Positions 198 to 23,456 of a stretch of DNA of 32,000 bases are shown here, in pieces. A model generated the notes under the pieces. It searched no databases and was not told the DNA's origin. It worked only from the letters and a program-made list of their open reading frames with translations. Source of the DNA: Candidatus Saccharimonas aalborgensis (GTDB taxonomy: Bacteria; Patescibacteriota; Saccharimonadia; Saccharimonadales; Saccharimonadaceae); assembly GCF_000392435.1 (NCBI RefSeq), contig NC_021219.1, positions 981,782 to 1,013,781 of the forward strand. The letters are read 5' to 3'. Both the position numbers and the translations under genes were made by a program. Numbering within the stretch: the stretch's first letter is position 1; each line of letters begins with the position of its first letter.

Positions 198-422
198 TTA
201 ATCACGTGCGCGGAAAACGATTCTGCCCTTTGTGAGATCATAAGGGGTTAGCTCGACTTCCACGATATCGCCCGGTACCAGACGGATATAATGCTTGCGC
301 ATCTTGCCGCTAATATGAGCGATGATACTTAGGCCGTTTTCCAATTCCACCCTAAACTGAGTATTAGGCAGTGCTTCCACCACCTTGCCTCGCAGTTTAA
401 TAACTTCTTTGGTACTCGCCAT
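198..422 (-). CDS. infA: translation initiation factor IF-1
   Basis: 74 aa: [30 protein letters not shown]...GRIVFRARD, the typical IF-1 S1-fold sequence. Confidence 0.95.
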
Positions 423-546: not shown

Positions 547-577
547 AGTCAAGTCAAAAGAGTGAGGATACTTGACT
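547..577. promoter_or_regulatory. 8-bp inverted repeat AGTCAAGT-N15-ACTTGACT overlapping the -35 of the RNA promoter (possible operator)
   Basis: 547-554 agtcaagt is the exact reverse complement of 570-577 acttgact. The right arm contains the TTGACT -35 box. Confidence 0.3.
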
Positions 578-600
578 TTTATATAAATATAGTGTAAAAT
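572..600 (+). promoter_or_regulatory. near-consensus sigma70-type promoter driving the G+C-rich RNA locus
   Basis: TTGACT (572-577), a 17-nt spacer, then TAAAAT (595-600), all in an AT-rich stretch just before the G+C-rich block. Confidence 0.6.
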
Positions 601-604
601 AGTA

Positions 605-1068
605 CACGAGTCCATTGTAGTTTGACAACCCCAACCCCCTGAAAGGATACCTGATGGGAAAGAGATGGCCTGGCATGGGTCGCCTGCGCGCAAAGCGCAA
701 AGCGACTGCCCAGCTCGCCGCTGCTAAGGCAGCGGCGGCGGTGAGGGCTCAGGAGGTCGTGAACGACCTCCTGTATCCCCACCAACGGGAGCACGGTACT
801 TCGCTTCTCGAGCGGCTGCACCCAGAGCCGCTCGACGTGTCGGATCACTCCGGCACGCCCAACCCTCGACGTCGTGTGCGCCATCGGGCAGACCGTCGGC
901 GACGGCTGCCCGAGGCGCTTGTCACCGAGCGGCCCTGCGCCGCTCGCGGCCACCACCGTGGCTGCGAGTGTGCTGACTACGTCTGGGAGCCGCTTCACGC
1001 ATGAAGCGTGCTCCCGACACCTACAATGGATTGGCCCTTACTGCACTCGCGGTAGGGGCCTTTCCTTT
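605..1068 (+). ncRNA. unclassified large structured RNA (~460 nt, G+C-rich, multi-hairpin, closed by a long-range helix)
   Basis: Closing helix 611-620 tccattgtag / 1021-1030 ctacaatgga. Perfect or near-perfect hairpins: 716-737 (9 bp), 750-773 (10 bp), 808-835 (10 bp), 837-856 (7 bp), 884-913 (13 bp, 1 bulge), 943-968 (11 bp), 985-1015 (13 bp, 1 bulge). Promoter upstream, terminator downstream. Counted G+C is 41/60 and 40/60 for lines 661-780. Confidence 0.6.
1033..1068 (+). terminator. intrinsic terminator of the RNA locus
   Basis: 9-bp stem ggcccttac/gtaggggcc (1033-1041 / 1052-1060, one G-U) with a 10-nt loop, followed by tttccttt. The T-tract is present only on the plus strand. Confidence 0.55.
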
Positions 1069-1086
1069 GCAGCTACTTTCGAAATA

Positions 1087-2496
1087 TTATTTGTAATCGT
1101 CGTACGTCACCATGAGGGCGCGTGAGTTGACCTGTCGCAGAGTTTCGAGCCCCACTGTCACGACGATGAGAAGACCCGTGCCTCCAATCGCCAAATTGGC
1201 AGCGTTGAGCCCTAGTTTGACAAAGACATACTCAATGATGAATGGCATCACGGAGATAAAGCCGAGAGCAATAGAACCAAACAGAATTAAGCGATTGACC
1301 GTCCGTCCCAGATATTTTTCGGTCTGAATCCCCGGACGCACTCCCTCGATGAAGCCACCTTGCTTTTGCAGGTTTTCGGCAATCTCATTTGAATTAAAGA
1401 CGATGCCCGTATAGAAGTACGTAAACAATATTACGAGGAGGAAATAGGCAGCCGGATAGATAAATACGCCCAGATCACCACTTGCAAAGGACTGGGCGTT
1501 TGGTGCCTGGAACCACTTGATAAGATCGGCGCTCAGCTGAGTATACGAGGGGTTATTGGTTGCTTTGAGCACTTGACCTGCAAAGGCAGGGAGGCTGAGA
1601 AACGCGACCGCAAAAATCACCGGGATAACACCCGCAGCAATGAGCTTGACGGGGAGGATGCTTTTGATACCGCCGTAACTCGTATTGCCAGCGACACGTT
1701 TGGCGTAGTTGATAGTGATGATACGCTGAGCTTCATTGATTTTAACGAGGAAATACAATATAAAGAGCGATAAAAGACCGATAACAAGTGCTACCCAAAA
1801 CGCCGTCGGGCTCACCGGTAGGTCAAACCAGCCAAAGACGCTTAACTTTCCTGCCGTTGTGTCCAATAGCGAGGCGATGACCGTACTGAGGGTTGCTGGT
1901 AGCTGACTGATGATACCGGCAAAAATAATGAGTGAAATACCATTACCAATACCTTGCTCAGTGATGAGCTCTCCTAGCCACATGAGGAGAATGGAACCGG
2001 CGGTCATAGCAGTGACGGCTACTATCCACTCTGTTGGTGTGGTCGTGACAGTACCGGCAGTACTGCCTGCAAGAACTGACTGGCGCAGAATATAGATAAT
2101 TGCAACAGACTGAATGACTGCGAGTGGTACGGAGATGATACGCGTCCACTGGTTTATCTTGCGACGGCCAGATTCACCATCCTTATGGAGTTCTTCTAGC
2201 TTTGGGATTGCTTTTGTGAGCAACTGGGTGATGACGCTGGCAGTGATAAACGGACTCATTCCGACCAGGACGATAGACAACTGGCTGAGTGCACCACCGC
2301 TCATAAGGTTGAGGAATCCGCCGAAGTCACTTGAGCCGATCACCGTATCAATGATACTCTTTAGCTTACTCGGTTCAGCAATGGGCACAGGGATATGCGA
2401 CATGAAACGAAACGCGACGATCAGTCCAAAGACGATCAAGAGGCGTTTTTGCATATCACGGTTTTTGAGTGATCGAAGGATAATTTTCCAATTCAT
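1087..2496 (-). CDS. secY: preprotein translocase subunit SecY
   Basis: 469 aa polytopic membrane protein with typical SecY sequence (...GMSPFITASVITQLL..., ...GGTGLLIVVTVGLETLRQ...) and operon position after rplO. Confidence 0.95.
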   Translation of the reverse strand: MNWKIILRSLKNRDMQKRLLIVFGLIVAFRFMSHIPVPIAEPSKLKSIIDTVIGSSDFGGFLNLMSGGALSQLSIVLVGMSPFITASVITQLLTKAIPKLEELHKDGESGRRKINQWTRIISVPLAVIQSVAIIYILRQSVLAGSTAGTVTTTPTEWIVAVTAMTAGSILLMWLGELITEQGIGNGISLIIFAGIISQLPATLSTVIASLLDTTAGKLSVFGWFDLPVSPTAFWVALVIGLLSLFILYFLVKINEAQRIITINYAKRVAGNTSYGGIKSILPVKLIAAGVIPVIFAVAFLSLPAFAGQVLKATNNPSYTQLSADLIKWFQAPNAQSFASGDLGVFIYPAAYFLLVILFTYFYTGIVFNSNEIAENLQKQGGFIEGVRPGIQTEKYLGRTVNRLILFGSIALGFISVMPFIIEYVFVKLGLNAANLAIGGTGLLIVVTVGLETLRQVNSRALMVTYDDYK

Positions 2497-2595
2497 ACGG
2501 AGTAATTCTGCCTGTTTTCTGTGCGTTAGATGATACTACTTTACCTACAGTATACAGGACATGTTGCTGCGGTGCTAGCGGATTGTGCCGGATAC

Positions 2596-2624
2596 TTGTA
2601 CGACATGACGATCTGTTGTATAAT
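2596..2624 (+). promoter_or_regulatory. putative sigma70-type promoter for the G+C-rich ORF 2768-3223
   Basis: TTGTAC (2596-2601), a 17-nt spacer, then TATAAT (2619-2624). This predicts a ~140-nt leader. Confidence 0.5.
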
Positions 2625-2767
2625 ATGGTTATTGATAGCATTCGTGGGCATGCTTGATCATTGACAAGCAAGCATGTAGCCTACGGTGCTCCTACGAACT
2701 CCTAGCTCACTCGAGCTGGTGAGAAAAAGACCCTATCAAGACGGGTCACTATGGAAGGAGTTGCCTC

Positions 2768-3223
2768 TTGCCCAAGAAGGTCAAGAATCTGTTCGGTAAG
2801 ACATTCGGCTACGAAGGAGGTGTGGTCAACTTTGACGGACATATGGGCATGTTCGTCGGCGACGACAACGAACCCTTCGCCGGACGTGAGGGTGAGCAGG
2901 TGGTTCCGTACCCCATTGTTCCTCCTGCCGGGGAATCGTCGGCTCGTCGGGCACTCGTCGAGCTGGTGAACCAGACGCTTGCGTCGAGGTACGGTTCCAA
3001 GTTGGATGGAATCATCGTCAGCCCACGGATGGCACGAAACCTCTTCCTCGAGGGGCTGATCACGCCGGTCCATCTGGCTGCGGCCATCGAAGAGGCATTC
3101 GAGGGAGACCTCGTTCTCGTCATCCCGGATGTCAACATCGCTGGGCACCTCCTGTACATCGAGGTCGACAGCAACGCCGCGGTGAACTCATTCGCCATCG
3201 ACCGAAAGGGGTATCTGATCTGA
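2768..3223 (+). CDS. hypothetical protein, 151 aa, G+C-rich (foreign composition)
   Basis: TTG start 7 nt after GGAAGGAG (2753-2760). Third codon positions are mostly G/C. 38/60 G+C counted for 2881-2940. I recognise no family. The overlapping minus-strand ORFs look like G+C-rich shadow frames. Confidence 0.7.
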   Translation: MPKKVKNLFGKTFGYEGGVVNFDGHMGMFVGDDNEPFAGREGEQVVPYPIVPPAGESSARRALVELVNQTLASRYGSKLDGIIVSPRMARNLFLEGLITPVHLAAAIEEAFEGDLVLVIPDVNIAGHLLYIEVDSNAAVNSFAIDRKGYLI

Positions 3224-3242
3224 TGTCGATCCGATCGATGAC

Positions 3243-3276
3243 GAGGGGCGGCGTAGCAGTTTTTGCGCCGCCCCTC
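3243..3276. terminator. 11-bp G+C-rich hairpin without a U-tail, between two convergent genes
   Basis: gaggggcggcg (3243-3253) pairs perfectly with cgccgcccctc (3266-3276) across a 12-nt loop. No T-run follows on either strand. Confidence 0.4.
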
Positions 3277-3322
3277 AGGGGGGTCTCCGTTACCATCGCT
3301 ACACATGCTTGCTTGTCGCAAT

Positions 3323-3344
3323 ACCCCATAAAGGGGTTTTATTT
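3323..3344 (+). terminator. small intrinsic terminator
   Basis: acccc-ataaa-ggggt followed by tttatttat. The T-tract is on the plus strand. Confidence 0.4.
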
Positions 3345-3353
3345 ATATCGTTT

Positions 3354-3788
3354 CTACGCAGCTTGTTCGGAAGCGCGACGAAACACGAGCACTGTATCTG
3401 CTTGTGCATCTCGATCTTTGCGCACAATGGGTAGGGGTAGCTCACCAGCGATCTCTTTGAGTGCTCCCGCAAGAAATAAATCTAAGTCCATTGTTCCTGA
3501 AGCAATCTGACGCCACCCTGTCTCGGAGACAACAACTTTCCCATCGAGGAAGTCTATAAGTTTCTCTGGCAAAAAGCCCTCTATTGCGCCGATAGTCTCG
3601 TCGCTCACCGTCCAACCTGCATCTCTGGCCAGATGCTCTAGGCGCCCCACCTGTGCGCCAATGAACTGCCTGCGGAGATTTCCGTACCCCTCGCGAATGG
3701 CACGTGCTAGTCGCTCACGACCAGCTTGCTCGTAGTTGCGCCGATGTTCATTCCAATCGATCGCTATTTCGGGTACGCGTGGCATCAT
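3354..3788 (-). CDS. hypothetical protein, 144 aa
   Basis: GGAGG (3793-3797) precedes tandem ATGs at 3788 and 3785; the spacing favours 3785. An extended -10 TGcTATAGT lies at 3815-3823 (minus strand). G+C is above the host level (31-39/60 in three counted lines). No family recognised. Confidence 0.65.
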   Translation of the reverse strand: MMPRVPEIAIDWNEHRRNYEQAGRERLARAIREGYGNLRRQFIGAQVGRLEHLARDAGWTVSDETIGAIEGFLPEKLIDFLDGKVVVSETGWRQIASGTMDLDLFLAGALKEIAGELPLPIVRKDRDAQADTVLVFRRASEQAA

Positions 3789-3845
3789 CTGTCCTCCAGT
3801 TTAGCTACTAACAAACTATAGCATGCTTTGTCACACCATCTATAA

Positions 3846-3878
3846 CAAAAGTATGCGCCAATACTGCGCATACTTTTG
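3846..3878 (-). terminator. 13-bp hairpin terminator after rplO
   Basis: caaaagtatgcgc / gcgcatacttttg is a perfect stem with a 7-nt loop. On the minus strand the 3' arm runs into cttttgttat. Confidence 0.5.
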
Positions 3879-3899
3879 GCAAAACCAAGCGAGTTGTCG

Positions 3900-4379
3900 C
3901 TATTTTTTATCTGTAGCTTCAGCTTCTTTGGCTGATTTTTGGATGGGTGTTGCGACTTTATCGAAACTACCACCTGCCTTTTCTATAGCAGCCACAACGT
4001 TCCTTGATGCGCCCTGAGTCTTGAGAGTGATCTTGCTCCCCAGTTCACCACGAGCGATTACCTTGACGGTATGGAACGGTGTCGCGATAAGATTTGCTTC
4101 GTACAGAGCATAGTTATCGACGATACCCTTGAGTCCTTCAAGCCGATCAAGGTAGACAACCTGAGCTGGTGTTCGCAAACTTTTGAATCCTCGTGATTTT
4201 GGCACCGCAGTAGCGATGCCGTTTTGGCCACCCTGAAACATCGGACGCAGCTTCTTGCCAGTACGAGCATTCTGACCTTTTGTTCCGCGACCTGCTGTCT
4301 TGCCACCACCGGCAGCAATTCCGCGGCCGACGCGCTTGCGATCCTTGTGCGTACTCATCTGGAGATCATTGTATTTCAT
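3900..4379 (-). CDS. rplO: 50S ribosomal protein L15
   Basis: 159 aa, ...RKRVGRGIAAGGGKTAGRGTKGQNAR.... TAATG overlap with the rpsE stop. Confidence 0.95.
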   Translation of the reverse strand: MKYNDLQMSTHKDRKRVGRGIAAGGGKTAGRGTKGQNARTGKKLRPMFQGGQNGIATAVPKSRGFKSLRTPAQVVYLDRLEGLKGIVDNYALYEANLIATPFHTVKVIARGELGSKITLKTQGASRNVVAAIEKAGGSFDKVATPIQKSAKEAEATDKK

Positions 4380-13542: not shown

Positions 13543-13572
13543 TTGACAAAATCTGTATTTATATTATATATA
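13543..13572 (+). promoter_or_regulatory. putative promoter for the G+C-rich three-gene cassette
   Basis: TTGACA (13543-13548), then a TATATA/ATATAT -10 region at 13565-13572 (16-18 nt spacer). It lies back-to-back with the rplC promoter. Confidence 0.5.
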
Positions 13573-13635
13573 TGGGATGGTAACATACAGCCTGGAAATA
13601 CCAGGTGTTCCTTAGCAGAAAGAGGTGTTACTATC

Positions 13636-13881
13636 TTGAAATCACGTGTGACTGGTATGGTTCTCGGCCTTGTGGTGCTCACGGCCTGCGGCGCTTCAAG
13701 CACCGCGGCCGCTGATACTCAACCGAACATGAACCCGAGAACTGGATGGGTTGTCGTTCGAGAAGATCGGCAGGTCGGAGTGTCCAAGGTGTGTGATGGG
13801 TCAACACTCATCTACCACGCCTTTGCCTACAACGGCAATGGCGGACTGGCTGTCATCGCAAACAGTCCCGAGTGCTCATAA
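13636..13881 (+). CDS. small putative lipoprotein (81 aa)
   Basis: TTG start 10 nt after AGAGG. The N-terminus MKSRVTGMVLGLVVLTAC has a basic n-region, a hydrophobic core and the lipobox L-T-A-C. The mature part has two Cys. G+C-rich. Confidence 0.6.
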   Translation: MKSRVTGMVLGLVVLTACGASSTAAADTQPNMNPRTGWVVVREDRQVGVSKVCDGSTLIYHAFAYNGNGGLAVIANSPECS

Positions 13882-13901
13882 GCAGATAGTGAGGAAAACT
13901 C

Positions 13902-14312
13902 ATGGTCAAGCCCACGATGGGTCTCGGTGACCCGATCAGTGACAAGCAGGCAGCTCGGCTTGAGCGCGTCTACCAAGTCGTGCGAGGAGTGACCGATCGC
14001 ATCTACAGGCCCCTCGACATGGAGAGGGGCGACCAGCACTTTGTGACGGAAGTCGCGAAGTACGTCATCGGCGTCGACACGACATCGCTCGACCTGCCGT
14101 TCAACCCCGAGGCCATCATGCCATTGGGGGCCAAACTCACCAAGCGGCAGCGCCGGCTGATCGGTGACGTCGTCTATGTCTGGATGCGTCGGTTCACGAC
14201 CGACTACCAGTACATGGTGCGGCTTGTCCTCCTGGCGCGGTTCGCGCGCTTCTCGAACCCAGTTCGGGTCGAGATGGCGAATCAGGCCGTCGGCCATCGT
14301 CCCAAGGAGTAG
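13902..14312 (+). CDS. hypothetical protein, 136 aa, G+C-rich
   Basis: ATG 6 nt after GAGGA. 36/60 G+C counted for 14041-14100. No family recognised. Confidence 0.6.
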   Translation: MVKPTMGLGDPISDKQAARLERVYQVVRGVTDRIYRPLDMERGDQHFVTEVAKYVIGVDTTSLDLPFNPEAIMPLGAKLTKRQRRLIGDVVYVWMRRFTTDYQYMVRLVLLARFARFSNPVRVEMANQAVGHRPKE

Positions 14313-14363
14313 GCGCTACACACTAGCCCGCTCCTACCCGCATTCTCCGGAATCATTCCGTCG

Positions 14364-14396
14364 AGAAGCCCGTAGGAGGCGGGCTTTTCGATTTTT
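14364..14396 (+). terminator. intrinsic terminator inside the cassette
   Basis: Stem agcccg/cgggct (14367-14372 / 14380-14385) with a 7-nt loop, followed by ttttcgattttt. Confidence 0.5.
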
Positions 14397-14424
14397 AGGA
14401 GATTATATGATATAGTATGGAAAT

Positions 14425-14766
14425 ATGACGGCAACAGGGCCGTCCCGTGTCCTAGGAGGATCTGTGAGCAGAAACCGTGTACCGACGTGGAAAAAGGTTC
14501 GGCACGACGCCCTCGCATCGTTGCGAGGCAGCGGCTACGAGATCGATAAGGCCATCGTCGCCATCGTGACCGCCTGCGCTCGCTACGTCGTCGGTCAAGA
14601 CTACGACCACTCGGTCGTGGACTTCGGCGATCGCGACCTGTGGGTCGACCGCGAGTACCGCCCCATCATCAGTGCGGCGGCCGACGCCGCCGACGCACTC
14701 GGGTCTAGTCACCTGGACATCTACGAGCGTGTCGGCCACCTGTACCACCTCGTCCATCAGGACTAG
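14425..14766 (+). CDS. hypothetical protein, 113 aa (or 100 aa from GTG 14464), G+C-rich
   Basis: ATG 14425 has a weak RBS. The in-frame GTG at 14464 follows AGGAGG by 4 nt. No family recognised. Confidence 0.55.
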   Translation: MTATGPSRVLGGSVSRNRVPTWKKVRHDALASLRGSGYEIDKAIVAIVTACARYVVGQDYDHSVVDFGDRDLWVDREYRPIISAAADAADALGSSHLDIYERVGHLYHLVHQD

Positions 14767-14773
14767 GCGACAC

Positions 14774-14823
14774 ACGACGACAGATGGGTGAGCTCTCCTC
14801 TAAAGCTCCCCGTCTGTCGTCGT
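14774..14823. terminator. long G+C-rich hairpin (15-bp outer stem plus 5-bp inner stem) without a U-tail
   Basis: acgacgacagatggg (14774-14788) pairs with cccgtctgtcgtcgt (14809-14823) with one G-U. Inner stem gagct/agctc. Confidence 0.4.
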
Positions 14824-14825
14824 TC

Positions 14826-14856
14826 CAACCCTGATGCGCATCGGGGTTGTTTTTAA
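14826..14856 (+). terminator. intrinsic terminator closing the cassette
   Basis: ~10-bp stem caaccctgat/atcggggttg followed by ttttt. The T-tract overlaps the stop codon (14853-14855) of the convergent deacetylase gene. Confidence 0.55.
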
Positions 14857-16292
14857 TTTGCACTATAGATAGACTTACCCGGAGAACCATTTGGCCCAAA
14901 CAACTGCTCAATACTGACAAACACATAGCCCTGTTTTGTGAGTGTCTCGAGGATGCGTGGAACAGCCGCGACACTCGTCTGGTGAATGTCGTGCAAAATG
15001 ATAATCGCACCCGGTTTTGCCCCCGCTATCACTCGGTTGTACACGATATCTGTGTTGCGATCAGCCCAATCGCGTGTATCTACCGACCACATGATTGCCG
15101 TCATCTTACGCTCGACTAGCACAGTGTAGACCGTATGGTTGATAGCACCATTTGGTGGACGCATATAGGGTGTATCTTTGCCGGTAACTTGCTTGATTGC
15201 GTTATTTGTCCGGGTGAGCTCGTCATTGATACGAGCGGGTGTCAGATACGAAAGTGACGGATGACCCCAGCTATGGTTCCCGATCGTGTTTCCAGTATCA
15301 GACGCTCGTTTCAGTACGTCGCGGTGCTTATCGATATTTTGACCGATGACAAAGAAACTTGCATGTGCATGATAACGCTGCAATGCGTCGAGCACTTGGT
15401 TTGTATAGTTGCTCGGCCCGTCGTCAAACGTCAAAGCAATACATTTGAGTTTTGAGCAGTCTACGTCACCGTTTTTGAGTGGCTGATACTCGGGTATTTG
15501 ATCGATTGAGACGATATCAAGAAGTTTTCTGGCTTGATCGGTCTGCAAAAACAGTTGCAAGTTATCAATTGGCAGCGATACATCGATAGCGCCTGCCGCT
15601 TCGCTGGCAATCACGCCTTGGCCAAATGAGAATTGAATCGTATGCGGATTTGTGATGACAAATGACCCAAATGAAGGACTATCAAAAACCTTATTGACGA
15701 GGCGGTCATCATATTCGTTTGTTACCTCGAGACGAGCCATCAGTTTTTGTTTGAGGTAGAGCTTTGTCCGTGCGATACCATCTGTGCTTTTTTGTCCATA
15801 GAGGTCTCGGAGCGTGATTTCTTTGCCGGTTTTTAGATCAAATGTCCACGCCCTGACATCAGTTCGGGGGCTTGATCCCCCTACCTCACTTCTGCTCTGT
15901 ATCAAGATCGAGATAGTGTCGGTACCCTTGTTTGTGAGCTGGTAGGTAGCATTCAGTTTTGACATGGGGCGAGGCACGATCATACGCGCACCTTCTACAT
16001 CTCTTAAGAACTGCGTTTTTCGTTCGTCGAGGTAGCTACGCACACTAGCGGTTATCATTTTGTTGTCCATTTCAGGATATTCGACCATCATCGTTATATG
16101 CCGAGACGAAACAGAGGTAACTTTTGACTTGACTCCTTCGTAGCGTGCATCAACCCAAAAATACTGCTCATTGATGGCTTCGGTGACGGGTCGAAGCCAA
16201 CTGACTACAAAAAATAATGCTGTTCCGCTGATGATAGAGACGATTATCACCAGCGCCCAGGGGAACCGCGCTCGACGGGCACGCCGTCTCAT
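14853..16292 (-). CDS. membrane-anchored polysaccharide deacetylase (NodB/CE4), PdaC-like architecture
   Basis: Start trimmed to ATG 16292 (ATGA overlap with the upstream gene). N-terminal TM (WALVIIVSIISGTALFFVV), a ~250-aa middle region, then CE4 motifs TFDDGPS and GNHSWGHP. Confidence 0.85.
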   Translation of the reverse strand: MRRRARRARFPWALVIIVSIISGTALFFVVSWLRPVTEAINEQYFWVDARYEGVKSKVTSVSSRHITMMVEYPEMDNKMITASVRSYLDERKTQFLRDVEGARMIVPRPMSKLNATYQLTNKGTDTISILIQSRSEVGGSSPRTDVRAWTFDLKTGKEITLRDLYGQKSTDGIARTKLYLKQKLMARLEVTNEYDDRLVNKVFDSPSFGSFVITNPHTIQFSFGQGVIASEAAGAIDVSLPIDNLQLFLQTDQARKLLDIVSIDQIPEYQPLKNGDVDCSKLKCIALTFDDGPSNYTNQVLDALQRYHAHASFFVIGQNIDKHRDVLKRASDTGNTIGNHSWGHPSLSYLTPARINDELTRTNNAIKQVTGKDTPYMRPPNGAINHTVYTVLVERKMTAIMWSVDTRDWADRNTDIVYNRVIAGAKPGAIIILHDIHQTSVAAVPRILETLTKQGYVFVSIEQLFGPNGSPGKSIYSAN

Positions 16293-22190: not shown

Positions 22191-22217
22191 TATACGAAGT
22201 TATCAAGTGGATTATTT

Positions 22218-22258
22218 CAAAAACAAAGACGCCCCTGTTTATTGGGGCGTTTTTGTTA
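22218..22258. terminator. bidirectional intrinsic terminator after tuf
   Basis: acgcccc-tgtttatt-ggggcgt core, extended by flanking A-tract/T-tract pairing. Confidence 0.7.
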
Positions 22259-22271
22259 ATTACAAGTGTAA

Positions 22272-23456
22272 TTATTTGGTGATGTTGGTGACAACACCTG
22301 CGCCGACAGTACGGCCACCTTCGCGGATAGCGAAGTCTTGACCTTTGTCCATAGCGATAGGAGCAAGCAACTTAACCTTGAAGGTCACTTGATCACCTGG
22401 CATGACCATTTCTTTGTCAGCAGGTAGTTCAACTTCACCCGTCACGTCAGTGGTGCGGAAGTAGAACTGTGGCTTGTAGCCCTTGCTAAACGGTGTGTGG
22501 CGTCCGCCTTCTTCTTTCTTGAGAATATAGACTTCGGCTTCAAACTCGGTGTGAGGTGTCAGAGTACCTGGTTTGACTACTACCTGACCACGCTCGATTT
22601 GCTCGCGCTCGATACCGCGAAGCAAGAGACCAGCGTTGTCGCCAGCCTGACCTTGATCGAGGTTCTTCTTGAACGCCTCGATGCCGGTAACAACTGAGGT
22701 CTGTGTATCTTTGAGTCCGACAATCTCAACTGCATCGTTGATCTTGACAACACCTTGTTCGATACGACCGGTCGCAACTGTACCGCGACCCTTGATCGAA
22801 AAGACATCTTCGATTGGCATGAGGAACGGCTTGTCAAGGTCACGCTTTGGCTCATCGATATAATCATCGAGTGCCTTGACGAGTTCCATGACTGCATCTT
22901 CGTTAGCTGCATCGCCTTCGAGAGCTTTCGTTGCACTACCCTTGATGATAGGTGCATTGTCGCCATCGTAGCCGTTCTTGGTGAGGAGCTCACGAACGTC
23001 CATCTCGACGAGTTCGACGAGTTCAGGATCTGCAAGGTCCATCTTGTTGAGGAAGACGACGATCTTTGGCACACCAACCTGGTGGGCAAGCAGAACGTGC
23101 TCGCGGGTCTGTGGCAATGGGCCATCGTTTGCAGCAACCACGAGGATAGCACCGTCGATCTGAGCGGCACCCGTGATCATGTTCTTGACATAGTCGGCGT
23201 GGCCTGGCATGTCAACGTGCGCATAGTGGCGCTTTTCTGACTCGTACTCCTGGTGGGAACTCGCAATGGTGATACCACGTGCTTTCTCCTCGGGAGCGTT
23301 GTCGATTTGGTCGTAGGCGACCGGCTTGTTTGTGTCACTAGGGAGCTTTTTTGCAAGCACCGCAGTGATAGCTGCTGTCAGCGTTGTCTTACCATGGTCG
23401 ACGTGACCCATAGTACCGACGTTGACGTGAGGCTTTGAACGATCAAAGTCTGCCAT
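22272..23456 (-). CDS. tuf: elongation factor Tu
   Basis: 394 aa, [22 protein letters not shown]. Confidence 0.98.

Follow-up and report, generated by a model that had tools for sequence, protein, structure and literature searches.

Candidatus Saccharimonas aalborgensis carries a G+C-rich, hairpin-dense element between infA (198-422, minus strand) and secY (1087-2496, minus strand), and this locus raises the question of whether the element specifies a structured non-coding RNA, a protein, or both. We studied it within a stretch of 32,000 nt from contig NC_021219.1, called the window here, to which all coordinates refer. The original prediction had described an autonomous structured RNA that replaces adk and map. 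Its plus-strand unit from promoter to terminator, its real and conserved fold and the lack of a known RNA family were confirmed, whereas the non-coding nature and the replacement of adk and map were not. We consider it about 60% probable that the element is an orphan protein gene restricted to one lineage and that its closed, multi-hairpin mRNA has a fold that is additionally under selection and plays a role in cis. The dual constraint on protein and fold is well supported computationally, and the family is tiny.

The open reading frame (ORF) at 654-1004 on the plus strand encodes an orphan protein of 116 aa, named ORF116 here, and its coding nature was judged from substitution rates, codon positions and indels. 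Relatives in eight alleles have 66-91% amino acid identity and all comprise 115-116 aa, except one that is truncated at a contig end. Variable sites were distributed over codon positions 1, 2 and 3 as 34, 35 and 65 (chi-square 13.9, p ~0.001, by our own arithmetic). The ratio of nonsynonymous to synonymous substitution rates (dN/dS, Nei-Gojobori, six comparisons) was 0.27-0.36 in the frame starting at 654. The two remaining forward frames had values of 0.84-2.0 and the reverse frames values of 0.40-2.2, and the minimum of the reverse frames stemmed from a non-open frame that shares the wobble position. In comparison with L007, the most divergent allele (72% ORF identity), 46.5 of 100 differences were synonymous, while about 26 were expected (again our own arithmetic). 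The only indels within the ORF were +9 nt (L010 and L020) and -3 nt (L007), compared to 1, 4, 4, 3, 1, and 1 nt in the untranslated regions (UTRs). Amino acid replacements were conservative (Y/F, V/I, K/R, S/T), and a Shine-Dalgarno sequence (SD), AAAGGA, is located 6 nt upstream of the ATG. By these sequence comparisons, the ORF116 protein was shown to evolve under purifying selection. The statement that the block does not look like a coding region is, thus, contradicted. The homologs keep frame 654-1004 with a 3-nt periodicity, which the original prediction itself had named as evidence against a non-coding RNA. It had set such periodicity against compensatory stem changes; the periodicity is present, and compensatory changes occur alongside it.

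The reading frame lies within a predicted transcription unit. A near-consensus promoter-like site is present as placed before, at 572-600 on the plus strand (TTGACT-17-TAAAAT), with 10 of 12 matches to the consensus. It is arranged back-to-back with the divergent infA promoter, and the predicted transcription start is at about 606-608. Its hexamers are kept in all alleles, and variation is confined to bases of the spacer between them. At the other end, the hairpin with T-tract was also found where it had been reported: the intrinsic-terminator-like structure at 1033-1068 (plus strand) has 12 pairs (1033-1060) and the tail TTTCCTTT. The secY stop codon (1087-1089, minus strand) lies 19 nt beyond the end of this structure, and 100% of the alignment cells of the hairpin are paired in nine alleles. 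Direct reading shows that this hairpin is not the secY terminator, since no T-run follows it on the minus strand. Nothing terminator-like is present on the minus strand between secY and the element.

The two ends of the predicted transcript are complementary. The long-range repeat 611-620/1021-1030 is perfect over 10 nt, as stated before, and in the fold it forms a closing helix of 12 pairs (609-620/1021-1032, plus strand) with a pair probability of about 1. A distance of 1-3 nt separates the 5' arm (609-620) from the predicted transcript start, and the 3' arm (1021-1032) directly abuts the terminator hairpin; therefore, the transcript is predicted to form a closed panhandle. In the nine alleles, 99% of the cells of this helix are paired. 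The ribosome-binding site (RBS) is enclosed in a hairpin of its own at 637-658 (plus strand), which contains the SD (642-647) and the ATG (654-656). AGG (644-646) pairs with CCT (650-652) and CCC (637-639) with GGG (656-658), with pair probabilities of 0.92-0.99, so that the pairing involves both the SD core and, in the ATG, the G. The cost of opening this site was about 7 kcal/mol for 641-659 and about 9 kcal/mol for 639-668.

The plus strand of 605-1068 had a minimum free energy (MFE) of -266.3 kcal/mol, compared to -191.6 +/- 6.7 kcal/mol for dinucleotide shuffles (z = -11.2), and 69% of the nucleotides were paired in the predicted fold. The claim of far more structure than composition gives, for which a comparison with shuffled controls had been proposed, was borne out by this value. 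When the 32-kb window was scanned in segments of 200 nt, four consecutive segments of the element reached z = -4.1 to -8.8 on a background of -0.65 (standard deviation 1.5), and the element was the strongest structural outlier of the window. The coding sequence (CDS) alone had z = -8.3; eight other CDSs of the window, five of them G+C-rich orphans, had z = -3.6 to +0.6. The G+C content is 0.66-0.75 at 661-1020 and 0.31-0.33 in the spacer 421-600, with 48.8% (0.488) for the whole window. The contrast in G+C noted earlier is, thus, real, although the figures of 25% for the spacer and 42% for secY were somewhat low. A search of the whole window against Rfam 15 (including RNase P, tmRNA, SRP, 6S, OLE, GOLLD, ROOL, HEARO, and raiA) gave 0 matches at the gathering score, in agreement with the view that no known RNA family is present. 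The best match of a permissive Rfam search of 430-1090 was a microRNA hairpin with 26 bits against a threshold of 105 (E = 0.024), and a tRNA/tmRNA scan found none in the window.

Several comparisons addressed selection on the fold itself. When synonymous codons were permuted with protein and codon usage kept fixed, the native ORF was 6.3 standard deviations more stable than the permuted versions (z = -6.3). For all nine distinct alleles, z lies between -7.7 and -18, and this holds also for L007 with its 114 substitutions. Applying the real L007 substitutions to the window sequence resulted in -245 kcal/mol, while the same 114 substitutions placed at random, within the same base and codon-position class, resulted in -191 +/- 8 kcal/mol (z = -6.8). 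The corresponding z value was -3.9 for L020 and -1.5 to -2.7 for closer alleles. The RNAalifold consensus comprised 145 pairs with 95.9% of cells paired. Both sides had changed in 10 pairs, compared to 5.0 +/- 1.5 in column shuffles (2/500) and 0-6 in slid controls. Six pairs vary in the two helices outside the ORF, three in the closing helix and three in the terminator hairpin. All six alternate between Watson-Crick and plus-strand G-U pairing, and those of the terminator hairpin are exclusively C-G or U-G; a single A-C cell in the terminal pair of the closing helix deviates from this. We concluded that selection appears to act on the mRNA fold in addition to the encoded protein.

The minus strand of 605-1068 also folds, with z = -9.5 (-5.9 to -9.5 across alleles). 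Shuffles of the minus strand fold about 7-16 kcal/mol better than those of the plus strand, but the native plus strand folds better in 9/9 alleles, and its excess over composition is 11-27 kcal/mol larger. We based the strand call on this energy asymmetry and not on the count of G-U and A-C variants per pair. A plus-strand RNA is indicated because the energy asymmetry, the switching to G-U pairs and the reading of promoter, terminator and ORF, all on the plus strand, point the same way.

All hairpins listed in the original prediction were recovered in the MFE fold or in the list of repeats (716-737, 750-773, 808-835, 837-856, 884-913, 943-968, and 985-1015), and all features of this paragraph are on the plus strand. 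Hairpin H6 (678-707) has 12 pairs, 96% of cells paired and one change on both sides (UA to CG). H7 (713-739) lies in the coding segment for an Ala run and has a perfect 9-bp core (716-724/729-737); 98% of its cells are paired, with one double change, CG to UA, in L007. The hairpin at 740-783 includes the stem reported at 750-773, a perfect 10-bp inner stem (750-759/764-773). In L007 this inner stem is gone and a new 9-bp outer stem, GTGCCCGAG / CTCGGGCAC, has arisen from changes on both flanks. H11 (808-835), with a perfect 10-bp stem, adjoins H12 (836-857), and 96-98% of the cells of both are paired. The hairpin at 884-913 is part of a long imperfect hairpin of the window allele (878-918), which is the most variable part among the alleles; its consensus helices are paired in 91-92% of cells. 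H16 (942-969) has 12 pairs, overlaps the coding segment for a conserved Cys/His motif and shows 97% paired cells with one double change (CG to UA). H17 (985-1015) has 13 pairs, spans the stop codon (1002-1004) and is paired in 98% of cells. We also considered an alternative long-range pairing, 786-795/1007-1016, and rejected it because direct reading showed no conservation of this pairing among the other alleles.

How such a gene would work can be proposed from these features. Its own promoter would drive a transcript of about 460 nt that ends at the intrinsic terminator just short of the convergent secY gene, and ORF116 would make up about three quarters (76%) of this transcript. The plus-strand RNA would fold into a closed form: its 5' end would be paired to the last 12 nt ahead of the terminator hairpin, a small hairpin would enclose the RBS, and the coding region would be occupied by 8-10 G+C-rich hairpins. 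Such a fold could yield a long-lived, RNase-resistant mRNA that is poorly or conditionally translated. Antisense read-through from secY is plausible because the minus strand has no terminator between secY and the element, and the tight folding may limit annealing to such antisense RNA. A base-paired 5' end and 5'-3' closure are features of stable, poorly translated bacterial mRNAs, of which full-length hok mRNA with its tac/fbi stem is best studied (PMC9841398). By analogy to these mRNAs, we infer that the structure probably stabilizes the mRNA or gates its translation. The element shares with hok-type mRNAs (PMC9841398) a length of about 400 nt, a promoter and terminator of its own, closure of the molecule by long-distance pairing of its outermost 5' end with the 3' UTR, and an SD that is sequestered in part. 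It differs from hok in that no Sok-like antisense gene is recognizable and no sequence or profile similarity exists, and its hairpins fill the whole coding region of ORF116. If the fold does control stability or translation, the logic of the closed mRNA of type I toxins would extend to a different kind of protein.

Some observations weigh against this explanation. The covariation term of RNAalifold was about 0 and covariation is thin, because the alleles are few, close and recombinant. Counted per pair, 33 G-U variants compared to 25 A-C variants were found, a difference that was statistically not significant (p = 0.18). The dS of the ORF is not below the dS of secY, so that synonymous sites are not globally frozen. 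The power to detect compensatory change is limited by the set of 9 distinct full-length alleles, which have a mean column identity of 90% and are recombinant mosaics, and the control with random placement of substitutions ignores which regions of the protein vary. Promoter, terminator, transcript ends, translation and fold are all predicted, and the suggested role of the fold in cis is drawn from analogy. Finally, one locus does not have the complete element: at L003 4397-5000 (GCA_964267585.1), unrelated sequence takes the place of the 5' half, i.e., of the promoter, the 5' arm of the closing helix and the ORF up to its middle. The remaining 3' half shows 96% identity, with insertions of 1-2 nt. 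The L003 assembly is indel-ridden with fragmented flanking genes, and an assembly error or a chimera is possible.

Bacterial coding sequences are normally weakly structured. Pervasively structured coding RNA is known from RNA phages and viruses (MS2/Qbeta, "genome-scale ordered RNA structure"). The element has in common with these RNAs that synonymous sites are arranged for far more pairing than the protein needs. In contrast to them, it is a single chromosomal DNA gene with promoter and terminator, and no viral homolog was found. It would represent a clean natural case of two overlapping codes, for a protein and for an RNA fold, in one short gene of a poorly understood episymbiotic lineage, with the fold maintained among the alleles by which synonymous codons are used.

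The ORF116 protein has a pI of 10.7 and contains 19 Arg (16%) and 17 Ala (15%). An N-terminal helix is followed by an Arg-rich middle part (RRRVRHRADRRRRL) and a conserved C-terminal Cys/His motif, RPCAARGHxxGCECAD(Y/F)(V/I)W, with the pattern C-x4-H...C-x-C; other peptides include AQEVVNDLLYPHQR and LPEALVTER. The grand average of hydropathy (GRAVY) is -0.89 and the maximal hydropathy over 19 residues is 0.68, indicating that there is no membrane helix. The AlphaFold2 model is confident for the helix at residues 8-40 only (mean pLDDT, the per-residue confidence score, 61.6), and the protein is largely disordered outside this single helix. No family was found in Pfam, NCBIfam, PHROGs, or PADLOC at E <= 0.1-1, and PDB sequences gave no significant match (best E = 1.4). 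When 1.84 billion protein representatives were searched with a profile, only the cluster of ORF116 itself was recovered, and a word-index search seeded with its most divergent member gave no new members. BLAST of phage and plasmid collections and a pattern scan of IMG/VR gave no match; therefore, there is no evidence for a viral, plasmid or actinobacterial donor. The long helix, the arginine-rich stretch and the C-x4-H...C-x-C motif suggest that ORF116 may bind nucleic acids. Proteins with arginine-rich motifs, such as N of phage lambda, bind RNA hairpins. The likeness to lambda N, which is about 110 aa long, very basic and mostly disordered with an Arg-rich stretch, may serve as a lead; no sequence similarity was seen in Pfam or PHROGs, and RNA binding by ORF116 is only putative.

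These properties of the protein bear on a further explanation, in which the folded RNA is a scaffold, decoy or regulator besides being a message, i.e., a dual-function RNA, or an autogenous ribonucleoprotein with the Arg-rich protein binding its own hairpins. We regard this as unlikely. Structure selected beyond the coding need would fit such a role, as would a size and hairpin density like those of dedicated structured RNAs and a protein with an arginine-rich stretch that lacks order outside one helix. However, the analysis identified neither a target in trans nor a binding motif nor an unpaired loop of conserved sequence, and both the share of the transcript that the ORF takes up and the restriction of the family to one narrow clade argue against it. 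RNAIII has about 514 nt, 14 hairpins and long-range helices. As in RNAIII of Staphylococcus aureus, SgrS, SR1, and SR7 (PMC12310071, PMC7834092), an ORF is contained in an independent, hairpin-dense transcript of a few hundred nt. For the element, the independent transcript with a small ORF that characterizes dual-function sRNAs is supported by prediction and evolutionary signature (promoter, terminator, SD, and ORF). Proteins of dual-function RNAs are usually shorter than 50 aa, and their coding regions make up a minor share of the transcript (PMC12310071), whereas ORF116 is larger, with 116 aa on most of the transcript, and no homology to them exists. Should the RNA have a function besides that of a message, it would be unusually large for a dual-function RNA. 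We likewise hold it to be doubtful that the gene at the secY/infA junction, in the ribosomal gene cluster of this bacterium of the candidate phyla radiation (CPR), gives rise to a ribonucleoprotein encoded by its own RNA, in which the selected, closed multi-hairpin molecule acts in its own right and is also the message for the arginine-rich protein that binds it. Such a gene could have originated de novo from a structured RNA. Judged by analogy, the element would work most like a hok-type closed mRNA or an RNAIII-like dual-function RNA and is a member of neither group.

An ordinary small protein gene could also give rise to hairpins without any selection for them, as a by-product of self-complementary G+C-rich Ala, Arg and Gly codons or of template-switch mutations that perfect inverted repeats. 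The high Arg and Ala content of the protein agrees with this, and so do the folding of both strands, which is far more stable than that of shuffles, the perfect palindromes formed by several stems, and some multi-base changes in L007 that hit both arms together. The permutation of synonymous codons, which keeps the protein and its codon usage, nevertheless leaves the stability of the native ORF unexplained, and the five other G+C-rich orphan CDSs of the window do not show comparable z values. Moreover, the plus strand is favored in all alleles against compositional expectation, and the closing helix and the terminator, with variable pairs that are Watson-Crick or plus-strand G-U bar the one A-C cell, lie outside the ORF. 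We, therefore, judge a mere by-product to be rather improbable.

A purely non-coding structured RNA, with a frame that stays open by chance owing to the high G+C content, was the view of the original prediction and now seems very unlikely. It would be in line with the extreme structure, the lack of an Rfam match, the orphan status of the protein and its low-confidence structure model. Chance ORFs do occur in G+C-rich DNA, here with 139 aa on the minus strand and 83 aa in another plus-strand frame. But a dN/dS of about 0.3 is specific to the ORF116 frame, with about 1-2 in the other forward frames, and third-position enrichment, the synonymous excess relative to L007, in-frame indels, conservative replacements and an SD at the right distance all speak for a protein. 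The 139-aa ORF (579-998, minus strand) was considered as a gene and rejected, since dN/dS in its frame (R0) was 0.6-1.7. OLE, GOLLD, ROOL, HEARO, and raiA resemble the element in size range, in many hairpins enclosed by a long-range helix and in their unknown function. The element differs from these ornate RNAs in coding for a protein under purifying selection, in having no Rfam match and in its occurrence in one narrow clade. Scans for ornate RNAs by hairpin density and G+C content will catch such genes, and frame-aware tests are needed before they are called non-coding.

It is similarly improbable that the locus is a module resembling type I toxin-antitoxin systems, with a stable, closed and inert mRNA for a harmful protein that is held in check by antisense read-through from secY. 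The helix between the 5' and 3' ends and the partly sequestered SD resemble the tac/fbi closure of hok mRNA (PMC9841398), and the gene is convergent with secY without a minus-strand terminator between them. The toxins of hok type are membrane peptides, usually of less than 60 aa, however, and ORF116 is a hydrophilic, arginine-rich protein of 116 aa without a membrane helix and without a PADLOC or Pfam match. No discrete antisense gene was recognized across the 5' region, and 606-1068 contains no minus-strand unit of promoter plus terminator, so that antisense RNA could come only from possible read-through of secY; the minus-strand promoter-like sites at 628-599 and 614-586 would direct transcription away from the transcript. 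That the selected structure is instead a minus-strand 3' UTR or intercistronic RNA of the secY-infA operon, acting as stabilizer or insulator, is extremely unlikely: the minus strand folds too and secY has no terminator of its own before the element, but the plus strand has the larger excess in every allele, the switches of the six variable pairs outside the ORF to plus-strand G-U would be A-C mismatches on the minus strand (the one A-C cell excepted), and promoter, terminator and ORF belong to the plus strand.

We also considered the distribution of the gene. The element is confined to Candidatus Saccharimonas aalborgensis and its closest relatives, and an identical SecY protein is found on contigs of Saccharibacteria of this type, e.g., GCA_000390105.1 and CP064959.1. 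ORF116 lies between infA and secY in every contig that shows both flanks, and scans of genomes and metagenomes with the protein alignment added two further loci only. The element is single-copy in the window and occupies the same site in 20/20 carrying loci. A mobile element or miniature inverted-repeat transposable element (MITE) with terminal inverted repeats was, therefore, rejected as an explanation; the 12-nt repeat of the closing helix sits within the promoter-terminator unit. The dS values of ORF116 and secY are decoupled (0.24 versus 0.08 in L002, 0.14 versus 0.49 in L011) and the alignment shows block-wise mosaic alleles, pointing to frequent recombination in the population.

The surroundings of the gene were compared to those in sister Saccharimonas lineages (L022-L024), in which SecY is 84-85% identical. 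There, infA directly follows secY, with spacers of 199, 447, and 343 nt, and neither adk nor map is present between the two genes. The element can, thus, not be said to replace adk and map, which are missing from this position also where the element is absent, and with spacers of 199-447 nt and differing contents, the slot is not the normally invariant one that had been assumed. The folding of the sister spacers is only mild (z = -3.2 and -1.5); therefore, the extreme fold is specific to the gene and not to the slot. A promoter-like site of infA at 525-552 on the minus strand (-35 TTGACT 552-547, -10 TACAAT 530-525), mentioned here as context, forms the left boundary of the lineage-specific insert. 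By direct reading, both of its hexamers are recognizable in the sister spacers. Rightward of about 556, nothing in these spacers corresponds to the window sequence, and the lineage-specific part is the element.

Other insertions were seen at the same junction. The sister spacer L023 3911-4357 contains a plus-strand ORF of 47 aa, MPRKHSKASKVYRGEGGK..., with a strong terminator of its own in the same slot and orientation. This ORF does not resemble ORF116 and has a G+C content of about 60%, and its spacer is the mildly structured one with z = -3.2. In several alleles (L011 ~976-1106, also L012, L014-L016, L004, and L007), a MITE-like element of about 125 nt with the ends CCTGAATTTCACC...GGTTTAAGATTCAGG separates the terminator from the stop codon of secY, with its insertion point at about 1085-1088 of the window. 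Its ends match those of an insertion sequence (IS) of about 1.2 kb, the parent IS, which encodes an rve-family transposase of 321 aa. In L004 the IS lies between the -35 boxes of the infA and element promoters, and both boxes are intact. The window has no copy of the MITE. Because of the ORF in L023 and the MITE and IS insertions, we consider the secY-infA junction to be a tolerated landing site rather than a place where adk and map were replaced.

The window contains further orphan genes. A second insertion into the ribosomal cluster, between secY and rplO (2500-3900), comprises two of them without a family match: 2768-3223 (plus strand; 151 aa, about 60% G+C) and 3354-3788 (minus strand; 144 aa). 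The gene for the 144-aa protein is missing from L004, L008, and L009 and, thus, shows presence/absence polymorphism. Three G+C-rich orphan genes are clustered on the plus strand at 13543-14850, between ribosomal genes and a gene for 500 aa: 13543-13881, with a signal-peptide-like N-terminus, 13902-14312, and 14425-14766. Their CDSs had z = -2.0 to -3.6. Direct reading revealed terminator-like hairpins at about 14325-14390 and 14775-14850 in this cluster; its terminator window had z = -6.6, and the outlier of the structure scan at 14701-14900 overlaps paired terminator-like hairpins. Another outlier, 22201-22400 (z = -5.5), is by direct reading a seemingly ordinary intrinsic terminator on the minus strand (22200-22300) after the stop codon of an ORF of 394 aa (22272-23456, minus strand), the C-terminus of which looks EF-Tu-like.

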